Shown: positions 56,532 through 62,302 of the stretch, piece by piece
Numbering within the stretch: the first letter of the stretch is position 1
Layout of the letters: each line of letters starts with the position of its first letter
From: Candidatus Tayloriibacteriota bacterium
GTDB taxonomy: Bacteria; Patescibacteriota; Minisyncoccia; Phycocordibacterales; PALSA-1337
Assembly (NCBI GenBank): GCA_903857825.1
Contig: CAIOGI010000001.1
Span: 127,410 to 191,409 of the forward strand
Direction: 5' to 3'
DNA: 64,000 nt
Position numbers and translations under genes: made by a program
The notes under the pieces: model-generated
The model's input: the letters and a program-made list of their open reading frames with translations, nothing else
Told to the model about the DNA's origin: nothing
The model's database searches: none

Positions 56532-58863
56532 ACTCACTACACAGAAATATGTTAAAAAACTTCAATTTTAAACGGCAATAATTACGCTTTAATAGAGTGT
56601 AGAGATTGTCCGTCAAAAAGACGGTTTTTTTGTAAAAAATCTGGGGTAAAACCTAGATAACTGAACGACTGACACATTGACAATTTAATACCTCAACAAT
56701 TTCAACAATCAGGAGGTTGTTGGGGAAAAAAGGTAATACTAGGATGTGTATATATTATGAGGGTTTTTTCGAATATATGCATTGAATAGTAAGTTGTAAG
56801 TTGTAGACAAATAATTGTGGTTTTTAGATTTCCTAATGGGAAATTTAAGAGTATATGGTGGATGCCTTGGCTTCTAAGAAGCGATGAAGGACGTGGCGTG
56901 GCGACGATATGTTTCGGGGAGGTGCCTAGCAACCTTTGATCCGAAAATTTCCGAATGAGGAAACTCTCTGACTTCGAGTCAGAATTAACACGCTTGACGT
57001 GTTAATGCACACCCAGGGAAGTAAAACATTTCAGTACCTGGAGGAATAGAGACAAATATGTATTTCGTGAGTAGCGGCGAGCGAAAGCGAAAGAGCCCAA
57101 ACTCAACCTTAATCGTATTATGGGACGCAGTTTATTCTGTTGTCTTGTAATGCGATTAAGGTTGGGGGTTATAAGGTGAGAACGTACCATTTATGGTAGG
57201 AAAGTTACAAAATTTTTTGATAGAAGAATCTGCTGGAAAGCAGAGCCCCAGAAGGTGATAGCCCTGTAGTCGAAATCAAAAAATCTTTCTTGTTCTTATT
57301 CTTGAGTACCTCGAGACACGAATGGCTCGGGGGAATTTGCCGGAACTAACCGGTAAGGCTAAATATTCTAGAAGACCGATAGTGAACTAGTACCGTGAGG
57401 GAAAGGTGAAAAGCAGCCCGGTAAGGGCGATGAAATAGACCTGAAACCATATATTTACAAGGAGTAGAAGAGGTAGCAATACCTCGACTGCGTGCCTATT
57501 GAAGAATGAGCCAACGAGTTGATGCATGTTGCAGGCTAAGCGCGAGAGCGTGGAGCCATAGGGAAACCGAGTGTGAATAGCGCGTTAGTAGTATGCATCA
57601 GACCCGAAGCCAGATGAGCTTGCCTTGAGCAGGTTGAAGTTTGTCGAAAGACAGATGGAGGACCGAACGCTAAAGTTGTGCAATTCTTTGCGATGACTTG
57701 AGGTAAGGAGTGATAAGCTAATCGAATCTGGTAATAGCTGGTTCTCTCCGAAATAGCTTTTGGGCTAGCGTTGAACGTACCCCTCTGGGGTAGAGCACTG
57801 GAAGGTCTCGACAGGTCGAAAGATCACGAGACCTATCAAACTCCGAATACAGAGGATTAACTATTCAGCAGTTAGACGGTGGGGGCTAAGCTCCATACGT
57901 CAAAAAGGAAACAGCCTAGATCTCCATTTAAGGTCCCTAAATTCATGTTAAGTACGCTTAAGGTGGTTGAATTTCTCAAACAATGAGGATGTTGGCTTAG
58001 AAGCAGCCATCATTTAAAGAAAGCGTAACAGCTCACTCATCGAGAGATTCTGCGCCGCAGATAATCGGGGTTAAACATGATACCGAAACTGAGGATGTGC
58101 TTTTGCTTCGGCAAGAGTACGTGGTAGGAGAGTATTCTAATCTGCGTTGAAGGCAAAGGCGTGAGCCATGCTGGAGCGTTTAGAAGTAAGAATGTTGGCA
58201 CAAGTAACCACAATGCGGGTGAGAATCCCGCACGCCGAAAGAACAAGGTTTCCTTGGCTATGAAAATCAGCCAAGGGTTAGTCGGGCCTAAGGGGATGGT
58301 GAAAACCGCACCCGATGGACACATGGTTAATATTCCATGACTTTTATGTAGAGTGACGGAGTGACGAAGTGCAGTATATGACGCTCATTATTGGATTTGA
58401 GTGCATGCTATAGGGGATTGACACAGGAAAATCCGTGTCGTGTCTTTAATGACAATTCCGAGTAGAGTGTAAAGGTAGGGGTTCGCCCTTATTTATGTCG
58501 TAAAGCGCGCTTCCGAGAAAAACTTCTAAACTTATCTATATAGAAACCGTACCGCAAACCGACACAGGTGTTCAGGTCGAGTAGACCAAGGCGAACGAGT
58601 GAGAGGTCTCCAAGGAACTCGGCAAAAAATCAGCCGTAACTTCGGAATAAGGCTTGCCCTTCGCAAGAAGGGCCGCAGCTAAAGTATCTCTGGCAACTGT
58701 TTATCAAAAACACAGCTCCCTGCGAACTCGTAAGAGGATGTATAGGGGGTGACACTTGACCAATGCCCGAAGGTCAAATATCGACGTTGTATTGTCGCAA
58801 GATGATATGGTGATTGATATAAGCCCGGGTGAATGTCGGCCGTAACTATAACGGTCCTAAGGT

Positions 58864-59086
58864 TCTGAGTTTGTCTTCGGATGAACTCAGACGGACTAGG
58901 ACTGTTATATAGCAAAAGTGATTCGTTTTTAGATAAATTAGATTAAAATATTACATAAACAAGCTACCTGCATATGAGTAATCATATGCTGAGTCCATTG
59001 CAGTTAAATAGAGACCAACACTGCACATCCGATCTCCGTAAGGAAAGGATGAAGATAGAGTCCATCTGTGCTTAAAGGAATAGATG
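58864..59086 (+). mobile_element. ORF-less ~223-nt insertion in 23S at the conserved AAGGU|AGCGAAAUU junction (E. coli ~1917 region); candidate small intron/IVS
   Basis: The exon sequence ...ggtcctaaggt resumes as agcgaaattccttgtcaggtaagttctgac after 223 nt. The insert contains no ORF. Confidence 0.5.
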
Positions 59087-59655
59087 AGCGAAATTCCTTG
59101 TCAGGTAAGTTCTGACGCGCACGAATAGTGTAATGTCTGGAGAACTGTCTCGGAGACTTGCTCGGTGAAAATACAATATCGGTGAAGATGCCGATTACCT
59201 ACAGTTAGACGAAAAGACCCTAGAAGCTTTACTGCAACTTGATTTTGACTATATGTTTTTTATGCGTAGCGTAGATGGGAGGATTTGAAGTTTTCTTTTC
59301 GGAGAAGATGGATCCGCAAGTGAAATACCATTCTTAACAAATATATATTCTAACCTCGACGGCAAAAACGACGAGAGACAGAATCTGGCGGGCAGTTTTA
59401 GTGGGGCGCTATCCTCCTAAAAAGTAACGGAGGAGTTTATTAAGGTCAGCTAGGCGCGAATGGAAACCGTGCCGATAGTGTATAGGCATAAGCTGGCTTG
59501 ACTGTGAGACGTACTTGTCAAACAGATGCGAAAGCAGAACTAAGTGAACCGACCTTACGCATTAGACGCGGGGGAAGATTATCGGATAAAAGCTACTCTA
59601 GGGATAACAGGCTGGTTGTGCCTAAGAGTTCATATCGACGGCACAGTTCGGCACC

Positions 59656-60534
59656 TTAACTCTTGACTTAAACATCAGGAAACATCGGGGTGCCTAGAAC
59701 AGTAATGTTCTAAGTTCTTTGCACTATTAAATTTAAGTGGCAAAGTTCAAATATTTGGCTTATAACGGTGGACTCCATAAACAAGCTATTGTGTCATTAT
59801 AAAAATGATATAATAAAATTTATATGGACAATACCGCGGGAAGTCTATCTCAAATACAAAAATCAGTAATTATTGGATCACTATTAGGTGATGGGTATTT
59901 AAGAATCGTTCCAGGTAGAAAGAATGCCTTTTTGGAAGTGAATCATTCATTTTCACAAAAGGATTATGTAGACTGGAAATATTCAATACTAAAAGATATT
60001 ACTGTAAGTGCTCCAAAGAAGCGTGTCATAGATAAAGTAAGAGTTGCTTATCGTTTTTATACGAGACAGCATCCTGAAATTACTGAGTTATATAAAATGT
60101 TTTATAAGAATGGTGTAAAAATCATTCCAGATAATCTTAATATAACTCCGCTTTCATTGGCAGTGTGGTTCATGGATGATGGTAGTAAATGTAGAAAAAC
60201 TGATGTTTATTTAAACACTCAGCAATTCAATCATTGTGATCAATTAAAATTAATTGATTTGCTTAAGAAATTTAATCTTGAAGCTCGACTAAATAAGGAT
60301 AAAATATATACCAGAATACGGTTTATAAAATCTAGTTTACTAGAGTTTAAAAGATTGATTAACGAATACATTATTCCATCTATGAAATATAAAATTGAGA
60401 TATGACCCTGTAGAGACTTGATCTTAACTGATCAGAGTGTGGATAATATCTATGCTAACACGCCGAACTCCATAAAATGATTTATGGATGAAGATATAGT
60501 CCGATCCTTCTGGTAACAGAAGAAAATACGACAG
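59656..60534 (+). mobile_element. ~880-nt insertion (candidate group I intron) in 23S between GGCACC and UCGAUGUCGG (E. coli ~2500 region), encoding a LAGLIDADG endonuclease
   Basis: Exon ...catatcgacggcacagttcggcacc | ... | (g)cgatgtcggctcaacttatcctgggg. Confidence 0.6.
59824..60405 (+). CDS. LAGLIDADG homing endonuclease (double-motif)
   Basis: IIGSLLGDGYL (motif 1) and LAVWFMDDGSK (motif 2); 193 aa; located inside the 23S insertion. Confidence 0.8.
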   Translation: MDNTAGSLSQIQKSVIIGSLLGDGYLRIVPGRKNAFLEVNHSFSQKDYVDWKYSILKDITVSAPKKRVIDKVRVAYRFYTRQHPEITELYKMFYKNGVKIIPDNLNITPLSLAVWFMDDGSKCRKTDVYLNTQQFNHCDQLKLIDLLKKFNLEARLNKDKIYTRIRFIKSSLLEFKRLINEYIIPSMKYKIEI

Positions 60535-61085: not shown

Positions 61086-61149
61086 CGTGAGACAGGTTGG
61101 TCTCCTATCTACTGTAGGCGTTGATTCTTGAGGGGATTTGACTCTAGTA

Positions 61150-61963
61150 AAGTATTGCTACTTCACAAAGTAATTTGTGATGACAATGTGGCTAATAACG
61201 GTGGAATCTTAATTCGTCTGTTTCGTTGATAACTTTCATTGCTCTAGTCCAGCCATGAGAGTACAATAGTGTTATTATCAATAATACTTGAGGACCAGAA
61301 ATAATTAAGACAATACCGTGGGAAGTCGATCTAATATTCATTTAGCGTATATTGCAGGATTTCTTGATGGAGATGGAAGCTTAATGCTTCAGATCAAGAA
61401 ACGAAAAGATGGAAATAAATCTAAATTCAGATTTATGCCAACAATTTGTTTTTATCAAGATACTCGGCATGAAAAGAATCTCTATTGGATTAGAGATGTC
61501 TTGAAAATTGGTTATTTATCAAAAAGAAATGATGGAATGACTGAACTTCGAATAAATGGTTATAAACAAGTAAGAGATATTCTACAAAGTTTATCACCAC
61601 ATATTAAGTTTAAGAAAATTCAAGCAGATGCTTTGAAAAAAGCATGTGATATTCTATTAAAAACAGAACTTAAACTTCTAAATAAAATACAATTAACTAA
61701 AATTGTCGATCTAATCTTAGTAATTCAGAGTGAGAATTATGTTACTAAGAAAAAGAAAACAAAAAGTGAATTGTGTCAGATATTAAATTTGACCCCGTAA
61801 CGACTTGTTTCTCTGCTCTATGTAGAGAAACGGATGTGCACATATCTGGAAAGTTTTTTCAACTGAATGAAAAAACAGGATTGTGCGCATAATACGCCAA
61901 CACCCGAAGCGAAGGCAGGGTGAAGATATAGTCTGTGCTCCTAGTGATAGGGGAATAACGCGA
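61150..61963 (+). mobile_element. ~814-nt insertion (candidate group I intron) in 23S between CUAGUA and CGAGAGGACC, encoding a LAGLIDADG endonuclease
   Basis: Exon ...gaggggatttgactctagta | ... | cgagaggaccgagttgaactgacc. Confidence 0.6.
61318..61800 (+). CDS. LAGLIDADG homing endonuclease (single-motif, I-CreI-like size)
   Basis: AYIAGFLDGDGSLML; 160 aa; located inside the 23S insertion. Confidence 0.8.
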   Translation: MGSRSNIHLAYIAGFLDGDGSLMLQIKKRKDGNKSKFRFMPTICFYQDTRHEKNLYWIRDVLKIGYLSKRNDGMTELRINGYKQVRDILQSLSPHIKFKKIQADALKKACDILLKTELKLLNKIQLTKIVDLILVIQSENYVTKKKKTKSELCQILNLTP

Positions 61964-62302
61964 CGAGAGGACCGAGTTGAACTGACCTCTGGTCTGACTG
62001 CTGTTCTACCAAGAGCATCGCAGTGTAGCTATGTCGGGAATGGATAACTTCTGAAAGCATCTAAGAAGGAAGCCAGCCCCAAGATTAGGAATCGTTTGAG
62101 ACCCGTAAGAGATGATTACGTTGATAGGCTTTAGGTGTACGCATAGTAATATGTTGAGCCGAGAAGTACTAATCCGTCGATCCTATTAGGAAATTTAAGA
62201 ACCACAATTACTTGTCTATAACAACACAACAATATAAAAAGTTACCTTGATAAATATGTAAAAGCAGAAGTTTTTCTAGTAAAAGCTTTTAAAATAAATT
62301 GA

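Follow-up and report, generated by a model that had tools for sequence, protein, structure and literature searches.

A 23S-5S rRNA locus of a Parcubacteria-type bacterium with four group I-type insertions, a putative mini-intron lacking P4-P6 and a predicted leader attenuator

Insertion sequences and group I introns in the ribosomal RNA (rRNA) genes of candidate phyla radiation (CPR) bacteria were reportedly noted by Brown et al. in 2015. A survey of 348 CPR 23S genes detected insertions in 82% of them, with up to 16 per gene and with sites concentrated in the 3' part of 23S; 45% of the insertions were recognised as group I by Rfam, and LAGLIDADG_1 genes were located at positions 1917, 1931, 1952, 2593, 2604 and 2657 (Tsurumaki et al. 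2024, PMC11270868). Introns at L1931 and L2593 are also known in cyanobacteria (Synechococcus), Thermotoga, Simkania and chloroplasts (PMC1995217). Here we analyse a 64,000-nucleotide stretch of a Candidatus Tayloriibacteriota assembly (contig CAIOGI010000001.1, positions 127,410 to 191,409 of the forward strand, hereafter the window), which very probably contains the unit that transcribes 23S and 5S rRNA in a Ca. Taylorbacteria-like CPR bacterium (Parcubacteria), the 23S gene being split by four group I-type introns. An intron-split 23S with homing endonucleases is a new example of a pattern already published for CPR bacteria. Comparative sequence evidence points to two further features, a mini-intron at L1931 without P4-P6, a domain usually regarded as essential, and a leader attenuator of 23S. 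The joint reading, in which a 23S attenuator is run by ribosomes and the L1931 intron splices without P4-P6 and without the U·G pair at its splice site, is put forward tentatively, its chances falling somewhat short of even.

The locus resembles the genes of the CPR survey (PMC11270868) in its insertions, its LAGLIDADG_1 sites, the frequency of introns lacking an open reading frame (ORF) and its single-copy rRNA genes. It differs in that L2500 carries a LAGLIDADG_2 (I-SceI-like) gene, and the survey classed inserts by the Rfam model only, with no intron architecture, P4-P6 loss or rRNA leader described. The introns of cyanobacteria and the other lineages above occupy the same L1931 and L2593 sites, and their single-motif LAGLIDADG ORFs run into the ribozyme core (PMC1995217). 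Those introns, of 650-750 nt, have complete cores and encode endonucleases, whereas the window copies at L1931 and L2593 are ORF-less, have their internal guide 100-150 nt from the 5' splice site and, in the case of L1931, are without P4-P6.

The proposed inserts were removed in silico and the remainder was aligned with MAFFT to E. coli rrlB. Universally conserved 23S sequence was unbroken across all four exon junctions, and the insertion points were placed after E. coli positions 1931, 2499/2500, 2593 and 2656/2657. The resulting gene structure is as follows.

56835..62190 (3' end ~62190), + strand: 23S rRNA gene (Rfam, MAFFT)
56835-58863, 59087-59656, 60535-60627, 61086-61148 and 61963-~62190, + strand: 23S exons, ~2983 nt once spliced
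58864..59086, + strand: intron 1 (L1931), 223 nt, no ORF, putative group I derivative without P4-P6
59657..60534, + strand: intron 2 (L2500), 878 nt, predicted group I
60628..61085, + strand: intron 3 (L2593), 458 nt, no ORF, predicted group I
61149..61962, + strand: intron 4 (L2656/2657, sarcin-ricin loop), 814 nt, predicted group I
62312..62420, + strand: 5S rRNA (Rfam, 73 bits)

An initial annotation, made from the sequence without database searches, had proposed four 23S insertions amounting to about 2.4 kb or 44% of the gene, and the alignment to rrlB confirms this: the inserts total 2373 nt, ~44% of the 23S gene, and have a G+C content of 34%, compared with 46% in the exons. The boundaries it gave for insert 1 (58864-59086) and insert 3 (60628-61085) were exact. 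For inserts 2 and 4 the sites were right, while the start of insert 2 (59656) and both ends of insert 4 (61150-61963) were displaced by 1 nt. Intron 2 starts at 59657 because the T at 59656 is exon U2500, and intron 4 is assigned to 61149-61962 because one ambiguous A is settled by the group I rule (exon U, intron-final G). The annotation had also placed all sites in domains IV-V around the peptidyl-transferase centre, which holds except for 2656; that position is the sarcin-ricin loop of domain VI and is not near the peptidyl-transferase centre. The start of the 23S gene at 56835 was given by the Rfam LSU_rRNA_bacteria model (1896 bits in the 64-kb window). Cmscan reports the complete model (1-2925) as ending at 59717, inside intron 2, because the aligner collapses on large inserts. 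Automatic annotation would shorten this 23S by ~2.5 kb, and pipelines are prone to truncating similar genes; it is mainly for annotation that the published pattern of many introns and a separate 16S matters.

Sequence features identify all four inserts as putative group I introns or derivatives of them. The 5' exon ends in T/U and the insert in G at all four sites, and each insert contains an R element (GUAGAGACU-like) and an S element (GAAGAUAUAGUCC-like). The internal guide of intron 2 (ACAUCG|GGGUGCC, 59682-59694) can form P10 with CGAUG and P1 with GGCACCU (7+5 bp, with U·G at the splice site), and that of intron 3 (UCACG|GCGGUC, 60781-60791) has GACCGU|CGUGA as its partner (6+5 bp, again with a splice-site U·G). 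Introns 2-4 display P4/P4' motifs ACGGUGG and ACCGNGGGAAG, as read from the sequence. Across 30 homologues of the L2593 family the guide is conserved, P9 is a GNRA hairpin whose stem carries compensatory substitutions, and P3 varies as GUUGAC/GUCAAC, GUUAAC/GUUAAC, GCUGAU/AUCAGC, GCUAAC/GUUAGC, GUCGAU/AUCGAC, GCUAAU/AUUAGC and others. Compensatory changes in P9 are also seen across 33 L2656 homologues, and a P3/P7 pseudoknot with R, S, P8 and P9 is backed by covariation in the families of introns 1 and 3. The terminal G is present in all 24 mini-introns at L1931 (see below) and in nearly all L2593 and L2656 homologues. The exon-U/intron-G rule, the guides of introns 1-3 and the covariation support the initial proposal that classical homing sites in rRNA are occupied here by group I introns. 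In searches with Infernal, the Rfam Intron_gpI model (RF00028) matched the 3' core of insert 2 at 39.9 bits, of insert 4 at 32.3 bits and of insert 1 at 29.9 bits, all below the cut-off although with significant E-values (1e-7 to 1e-4), and left insert 3 unmatched; other introns among the relatives score 65-78 bits. The homologue of insert 3 in the related locus L040 scores 43.9 bits with the same model. Insert 3 is thus probably a group I intron that the general Rfam model overlooks, since its homologue is matched, its guide is conserved and its P3 and P9 covary. The four introns would leave the pre-rRNA by guanosine-initiated splicing, the internal guides aligning both exons.

The smallest insert departs from the canonical architecture. 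A metagenome scan enlarged the comparison set to 24 distinct short L1931 introns, which share, from the 5' end, a hairpin, a conserved GGACURGGACNGU, an A-rich segment, the invariant guide GCUACCU, a GNRA-capped P2, P3, R (AGAGACCA), P8, S (GAAGAUAGAGUCC), P9 and the terminal G. Within this set 88-100% pairing is maintained in P2, P3, P8, P9 and the long-range 5-bp b1/f helix (GGACU/AGUCC, UGACU/AGUCA or UAACU/AGUUA), each position showing 2-6 pair types. The corresponding elements in the window are as follows.

58963-58969 (guide GCU|ACCU), 59010-59019 (R) and 59051-59063 (S), + strand: elements of intron 1

The guide of intron 1 pairs with AGGU|AGC (4+3 bp), leaving a U-A pair at the splice site. 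A P1 nearer the 5' end of intron 1 (GUCUUCGG, ACUAGGAC) was considered and rejected, as it clashes with the covarying helices, while the invariant GCUACCU fits both exons. In the mini-introns J2/3 and the R element are just 10-14 nt apart, which leaves no room for P4-P6. Consistent with this, the Rfam alignment of window intron 1 deletes 111 model positions, and in longer L1931 introns (loci L016, L113, L012 and others) a canonical P3-P4-P5-P6 is aligned at that place. The distance from guide to R tracks the splice-site pair: where it is 43-47 nt the guide reads GCUACCU (U-A) in 25/25 cases, and where it is 118-666 nt it reads GCUGCCU (U·G) in 7/7. In canonical introns the U·G wobble is read by J4/5 of the P4-P6 domain, and the joint loss of P4-P6 and U·G is therefore coherent. 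From this comparison intron 1 is predicted to keep only P1/P10, P2, P3, P7, P8 and P9, the whole P4-P6 domain being lost, and to be group I-like while falling outside the canonical group I membership. The last ~25 nt of the mini-introns (window 59051-59086; GAGUCC...AGG(A/U)AUAGNNG) resemble the ligated exons GGUCCUAAGGUAGCGAA and have the potential to base-pair with the guide GCUACCU. The guides of introns 1 and 3 lie 100-150 nt from the 5' splice site (58864-58962 and 60628-60780; 66-476 nt in relatives), and both introns have a conserved 5' domain in the P1 loop that contains a GACUGUU motif.

Several observations count against the view that these inserts are spliced group I introns and that the smallest of them works in reduced form. 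Every RF00028 match in the window is below the gathering score of 50 bits, and insert 3 has no match in the window scan. Intron 4 offers a P1 candidate of only 4 bp (GCUA with UAGU, invariant across the 33 L2656 homologues) and no clear P10. The splice-site pair of intron 1 is U-A, although U·G is almost universal among group I introns, P7 in 22/24 mini-introns comprises three Watson-Crick pairs plus a conserved C·A and A·G, and the mini-introns may descend from one deletion, making the correlation of A/G with length a single historical event. It might be argued that some or all of the inserts are never spliced, being either intervening sequences of the RNase III type, whose excision is not followed by ligation and leaves the 23S in fragments, or expansion segments that stay in the ribosome. 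RNase III intervening sequences occupy hairpin tips (helices 9, 25 and 45), their ends forming one extended stem. Positions 1931, 2500, 2593 and 2656, by contrast, are conserved single-stranded or functional-core positions, the ends of the inserts do not pair with each other (as judged for insert 1 from its consensus fold), and the exon-U/intron-G rule, the exon-complementary guides and the covarying P3/P7/P8/P9 fit group I. We consider this account very improbable, although it would accommodate the subthreshold Rfam scores and the shortness of insert 1 with its missing P4-P6, and although some CPR insertions have been said to be possibly of the intervening-sequence type (Tsurumaki et al., PMC11270868). 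The initial annotation had entertained such an origin for the 223-nt insert; its covarying, group I-derived family without an end-to-end stem speaks against that hedge and indicates a selected RNA fold. There is a substantial, if smaller than even, chance that the L1931 mini-intron is a crippled relic, removed only with a protein cofactor or with P4-P6 supplied in trans by a sibling intron. Its missing P4-P6, U-A splice-site pair and weakened P7 would all be expected of a relic, and the same pre-rRNA holds three introns with P4-P6-type motifs (ACGGUGG ... AAUACCGNGGGAAG); for the Tetrahymena ribozyme, P4-P6 can be added in trans in vitro. The conservation of 25 divergent copies with covariation and with an invariant J8/7 and guide argues instead for a working RNA, a P3-P9-only Tetrahymena construct reportedly retains some activity, and no cofactor candidate was identified. 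That engineered ribozyme, attributed to Ikawa, Shiraishi and Inoue in 2000, is said to show that a group I core is active without P4-P6 when supplied with high Mg2+ or polyamine; it is a laboratory construct, whereas the window intron would represent a natural conserved family. No description of natural group I introns without P4-P6 was found in the literature searched, the coverage of which is incomplete, making this weak evidence.

The second feature is the leader of the 23S gene, the elements of which follow the same order in ~20 relatives: promoter, short ORF (sORF), spacer hairpin, terminator, boxA-like motif and processing stem. In the window they are the following.

56503..56531, + strand: sigma-70-type promoter, TTGACT-17-TAAGAT (consensus scan)
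56549..56581, + strand: leader sORF encoding MLKNFNFKRQ, 10 codons plus stop
56572..56613, + strand: predicted antiterminator, in which 56572-56579 (ACGGCAAU) pairs with 56605-56613 (AUUGUCCGU)
56610..56631, + strand: intrinsic-terminator-like hairpin, CCGUC-AAAAA-GACGG followed by U7
56673..56689, + strand: boxA-like motif CACAUUGACAAUUUAAU, compared with the E. coli rrn boxA CUCUUUAACAAUUUAUC

The promoter-like element (56503-56531) and the terminator-like hairpin of the initial annotation were both recovered, the hairpin at 56610-56631, and its suggestion of leader attenuation or antitermination gains substance, as the hairpin belongs, as one of its arms, to a unit of ORF, antiterminator and terminator that is conserved and is followed by a boxA-like motif. 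The 56605-56613 strand of the antiterminator includes the 5' arm of the terminator, and the helix encloses the spacer hairpin. In the relatives the promoter is TTGAC[AT]-16/17-TATACT, the ATG is located 12-17 nt after the -10 element, and the sORF, with peptides such as MLNNTNFKRP, MLKNHLIFKRYR and MNITRNSLKGRP, is kept at 9-15 codons despite indels; a 21-32-nt spacer hairpin and then a CCGCx/xGCGG hairpin with a U-run come next. The boxA-like motif is identical to the E. coli boxA region at 12/16 positions, and similar motifs occur in relatives (CACUUUGAAAA). The consensus scan revealed no other promoter-like site on the + strand upstream of 23S in the window. A second promoter between terminator and 23S was likewise sought and rejected: the scan found none, and in no relative is the TTGACA within the boxA-like motif accompanied by a -10 element. 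The Arg codon CGG of the sORF (56573-56575) is the rarest Arg codon in the long ORFs of the window (9/581, 1.5%); it lies on the antiterminator strand, and most relatives have CGG or AGG-CGG at the same place. A Shine-Dalgarno-like core precedes only 3/56 long window ORFs, and its absence before the sORF is therefore normal here.

To what extent the unit is peculiar to 23S is apparent from a scan of 1.74 Mb from relatives, comprising 397 terminator-like sites, in which the nascent fold served as the criterion; a duplex-energy filter (<= -8 kcal/mol) had missed the window's own unit and was replaced by it. The combination of sORF, antiterminator and terminator occurred 19 times, 16-17 of these being located 115-425 nt upstream of a 23S, and gave a single match on the two strands of the window. 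An sORF ending 15-35 nt before the stem was found at 21/27 leader terminators versus 21/370 others (p = 3e-18 by Fisher's test, with relatedness left out of account). In the nascent fold of 18/18 leaders the last sORF codons are paired with the 5' arm of the terminator, and often with its loop. This complementarity is lineage-specific, as in UUUUCAAGCGG/CCGCUGAAAA, UUAAAGCGGA/UCCGCUUUAA and AGGCAGGCCUUAA/UAGGCCGCCU, and in 17/18 leaders the last paired nucleotide of the sORF is 1-7 nt before the stop codon. When folding was unconstrained, 12/18 leaders adopted the antiterminator; masking the sORF and 12 further nucleotides resulted in the terminator in 17/18. Aligned with MAFFT, the leaders show 77.5% pairing in the antiterminator core, compared with 24-46% in slid registers, and 87.5% in the terminator. 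The window leader has a fold z of -3.9 and matches no Rfam family. These results suggest that the leader unit, which is found almost only upstream of 23S, is a ribosome-mediated attenuator of 23S/5S synthesis.

In the model that we favour all 23S transcripts would start at the promoter at 56503-56531, and the RNA would then run through the 10-codon sORF, the antiterminator/terminator, the boxA-like signal and a processing helix of ~47 bp. With no ribosome on the sORF, the 3' end of the sORF would pair with the terminator 5' arm, allowing read-through into 23S. A ribosome at the rare CGG or at the stop codon would unpair the antiterminator, the terminator would form and the transcript would end at ~56631. 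High translation capacity would consequently lower the output of 23S/5S, and low or inhibited capacity would raise it, which constitutes negative feedback. The predicted control would be specific to the 23S-5S unit because the 16S leader is without an sORF. The 16S leaders of loci L087 (~15990-16060), L040 (~13740-13830) and L060 (~15100-15230) consist of a consensus promoter (TTGACT-17-TAGAAT), a short hairpin whose U-run is weak, and the boxA-like UUUUUGACAAUU; unlike the 23S leaders they contain no leader ORF. The proposed unit shares with known attenuators (the trp/his/leu leaders, pyrBI, bmrB-bmrCD and erm/msrD) a promoter-proximal short ORF and mutually exclusive hairpins, with the position of the ribosome deciding between them. 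It differs from them in that an rRNA rather than an mRNA is controlled, there is no run of regulatory codons, translation is predicted to cause termination and the 5' UTR is nearly leaderless. With the E. coli rrn leader (boxB-boxA-boxC, RNase III helix) it has in common a boxA-like motif and a long leader-trailer helix; in E. coli, however, boxA directly follows the promoters with no ORF or intrinsic terminator before it, and the window unit drives 23S-5S alone. The literature searched contained no description of rRNA leader peptides or attenuation, which is weak evidence given its incomplete coverage.

Three points tell against a switch run by ribosomes: the GCGG/CCGC/GCGG core is nearly invariant, resulting in modest alignment-based covariation; the terminator and antiterminator states of the window are nearly iso-energetic at the decision point; and in the same organism no sORF accompanies the promoter, hairpin and boxA of the 16S leader. 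Two other explanations of the leader merit consideration, each of which we regard as unlikely. The promoter, sORF and terminator may represent an independent tiny gene for a peptide or small RNA, with 23S transcribed without regulation, through constitutive read-through or from an unrecognised promoter. Such a gene would account for the consensus promoter and the canonical terminator as well as for the family resemblance of the peptides (ML(K/N)N..FKR; MNI.RNSLK.R), some differences between which are synonymous, and CPR promoters are poorly known. A free-standing gene would have no need, however, for the lineage-specific complementarity of its terminator 5' arm and loop to the 3' end of the sORF in every lineage. 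The lack of a -10 element for the TTGACA in the boxA-like motif, and a gap between U-run and boxA of only 9-25 nt in some relatives (loci L027, L067 and L019), are also at odds with it. Alternatively, the switch may be real and operate independently of translation, through UTP-sensitive pausing in the U-rich spacer or through a protein (a ribosomal protein or Nus factor) bound to the spacer hairpin, the ORF being incidental. The conserved U-rich loops of the spacer hairpins are in keeping with this, as are the absent Shine-Dalgarno sequence, a 5' UTR estimated at only ~5-10 nt and the L012/L064 pair, between which nucleotide similarity crosses reading frames. An incidental ORF would not be expected, however, to place its ATG at a fixed distance from the -10 element, to stay open through the antiterminator strand with a stop 1-7 nt later in 17/18 leaders, to maintain a length of 9-15 codons despite indels or to be 10-fold enriched at leader terminators; moreover, the genome as a whole is largely without Shine-Dalgarno sequences. 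The ribosome-mediated attenuator accordingly remains our preferred interpretation of the leader, within the tentative joint reading given above.

Introns 2 and 4 carry intact genes for candidate homing endonucleases.

59824..60405, + strand: double-motif LAGLIDADG_2 endonuclease, I-SceI-like, 193 aa, in intron 2
61318..61800 (GTG start), + strand: single-motif LAGLIDADG_1 endonuclease, I-CreI/I-MsoI-like, 160 aa, in intron 4

Both had been predicted in the initial annotation, as a double-motif ORF in insert 2 and a single-motif ORF in insert 4, and both score above the Pfam cut-off. The 193-aa ORF matches PF03161 (LAGLIDADG_2; 143 bits, E 9e-42) with motifs LLGDGYL and FMDDGSK, and its PDB relatives are I-SceI-type monomers (E 1e-16). 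The 160-aa ORF matches PF00961 (LAGLIDADG_1; 39 bits, E 1e-9) with the motif FLDGDGS, its PDB relatives being the homodimers I-MsoI, I-CreI and I-CvuI (E 1e-12 to 1e-9). The window ORFs are sequence homologues of these enzymes with the same number of motifs, and the catalytic Asp is kept in every LAGLIDADG motif. Each ORF begins inside the P5'/P4' core sequence AAUACCGNGGGAAGU and ends in or just before J6/7, and thus fills the P6 loop. The ORF starts (59824-59845 and 61311-61330) fall in conserved ribozyme sequence (P4'/J), resulting in shared N-terminal residues, and the start codon of the gene designated HE1 is within the P5 3' strand. The 160-aa ORF has 2845 homologues, and a profile scan with one genome per species located it in at least 587 species genomes; the best 80 of these are almost all labelled Parcubacteria-type CPR, the closest being a Ca. 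Taylorbacteria metagenome-assembled genome with 93% identity. Together with the comparisons among relatives, this upholds the CPR origin claimed initially and narrows it to a Taylorbacteria-like member of the Parcubacteria. A CPR relative, I-ShaI, has been shown to be an active endonuclease (Tsurumaki et al. 2024, PMC11270868). The endonucleases, one monomeric and I-SceI-like and the other homodimeric and I-CreI-like, would spread their introns by cutting intron-less alleles, and the L2593 and L1931 introns would have lost their endonuclease genes. I-CreI-type enzymes cut L2593 and I-SceI cuts L2449, whereas the window enzymes sit at L2656/7 and L2500, and their specificities must therefore differ from those of I-CreI and I-SceI.

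The distribution of the introns was examined by mapping 23S exons in 80 loci, the best matches to the 160-aa ORF. L2593 was occupied in 49/63 loci (14 empty), L2500 in 7/56 (49 empty) and L1931 in 14/28 (14 empty), the L1931 introns being either short (200-235 nt) or long (up to ~860 nt). The same sites are thus empty in many relatives, and the empty sites carry the exact ligated-exon sequence.

Intron 3 and its homologues contain additional elements in the P6 region.

60863..60994, + strand: lineage-specific long hairpin extension in P6 of intron 3, z -7.5

This hairpin (~130 nt) is missing from L006, the closest relative. A repeated mobile element was rejected as its source, the hairpin being unique in the window and in all loci apart from identical contigs. 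A tRNA-like element in intron 3 was also dismissed: Rfam tRNA scores only 24 bits at 60895-60964, ARAGORN finds nothing there and the region is the tip of the 130-nt hairpin. The L2593 intron of L060 (7015-7769) contains a tRNA-like element in a P6-region insertion (7547-7641), which is above threshold with Rfam tRNA (50.5 bits) and is called by ARAGORN as a 95-nt tRNA-Ala GGC. In L064 a tRNA-Ala(UGC) call at 3180-3256 lies within a 516-nt 23S insertion near E. coli position 1163 (the helix 45 intervening-sequence site), which suggests a tRNA-punctuated, fragmented 23S in that genome.

Across the whole 64-kb window Rfam detected no small-subunit rRNA and ARAGORN no tRNA. The downstream region was read from longer contigs, which share 9 kb with the window at 100% identity. 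In these the 16S gene is on the same strand and starts ~8.3 kb downstream of the 5S, beyond the window end, with genes in between for FtsW, a GT4 glycosyltransferase, Bac_transf, SecD, SecF, an ORF6N protein and a 259-aa protein; one of these seven is encoded on the other strand. In L040 and L060 the 16S is also located downstream of the 5S, at 6-7 kb. The initial statement that the 23S-5S unit is unlinked from any 16S is thus correct as to adjacency and incorrect as to linkage; 16S and 23S-5S are separated yet neighbours. The 16S gene (L087, 16247-18806) has a 192-aa LAGLIDADG_1 ORF (18082-18660) after approximately E. coli position 1395, a site for which group II-like introns with LAGLIDADG genes have been described (Tsurumaki et al., PMC11270868).

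The flanks of the 23S gene form the processing helix that enters the transcription model above.

56793..56841, + strand: leader strand of the pre-23S processing helix, including helix 1 (cofold)
62181..62230, + strand: trailer strand of the processing helix, holding the 3' copy of the 12-mer (cofold)

The leader-trailer duplex of ~47 bp is the usual pre-rRNA processing stem, and similar duplexes were obtained in 20/20 relatives tested. A 12-mer, GGAAATTTAAGA, is present at 56839-56850 (23S nucleotides 5-16) and again at 62189-62200 in the trailer strand. The initial annotation had described a direct repeat flanking the mature ends; both copies exist, and the 3' copy is the trailer strand of the helix, not the mark of a duplication. 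The repeat was accordingly rejected as a target-site duplication and as marking the mature ends, since the leader-trailer helix explains it and relatives likewise show repeats of 4-12 nt. Leader nucleotides 56822-56834 can pair with either copy of the 12-mer, and a local 12-bp hairpin with 56839-56850, an alternative to the long-range helix, may be a co-transcriptional placeholder.

If the prediction for the mini-intron is true, the family would show the in vivo minimum of a working group I core and which contacts are dispensable, with ~25 sequences at hand. The 23S leader attenuator, if true, would represent a novel means of adjusting rRNA output to translation capacity and would bear on growth control in the minimal-genome CPR bacteria. 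It would give a molecular form to the old idea of 'ribosome feedback', in bacteria with single, split rRNA genes.

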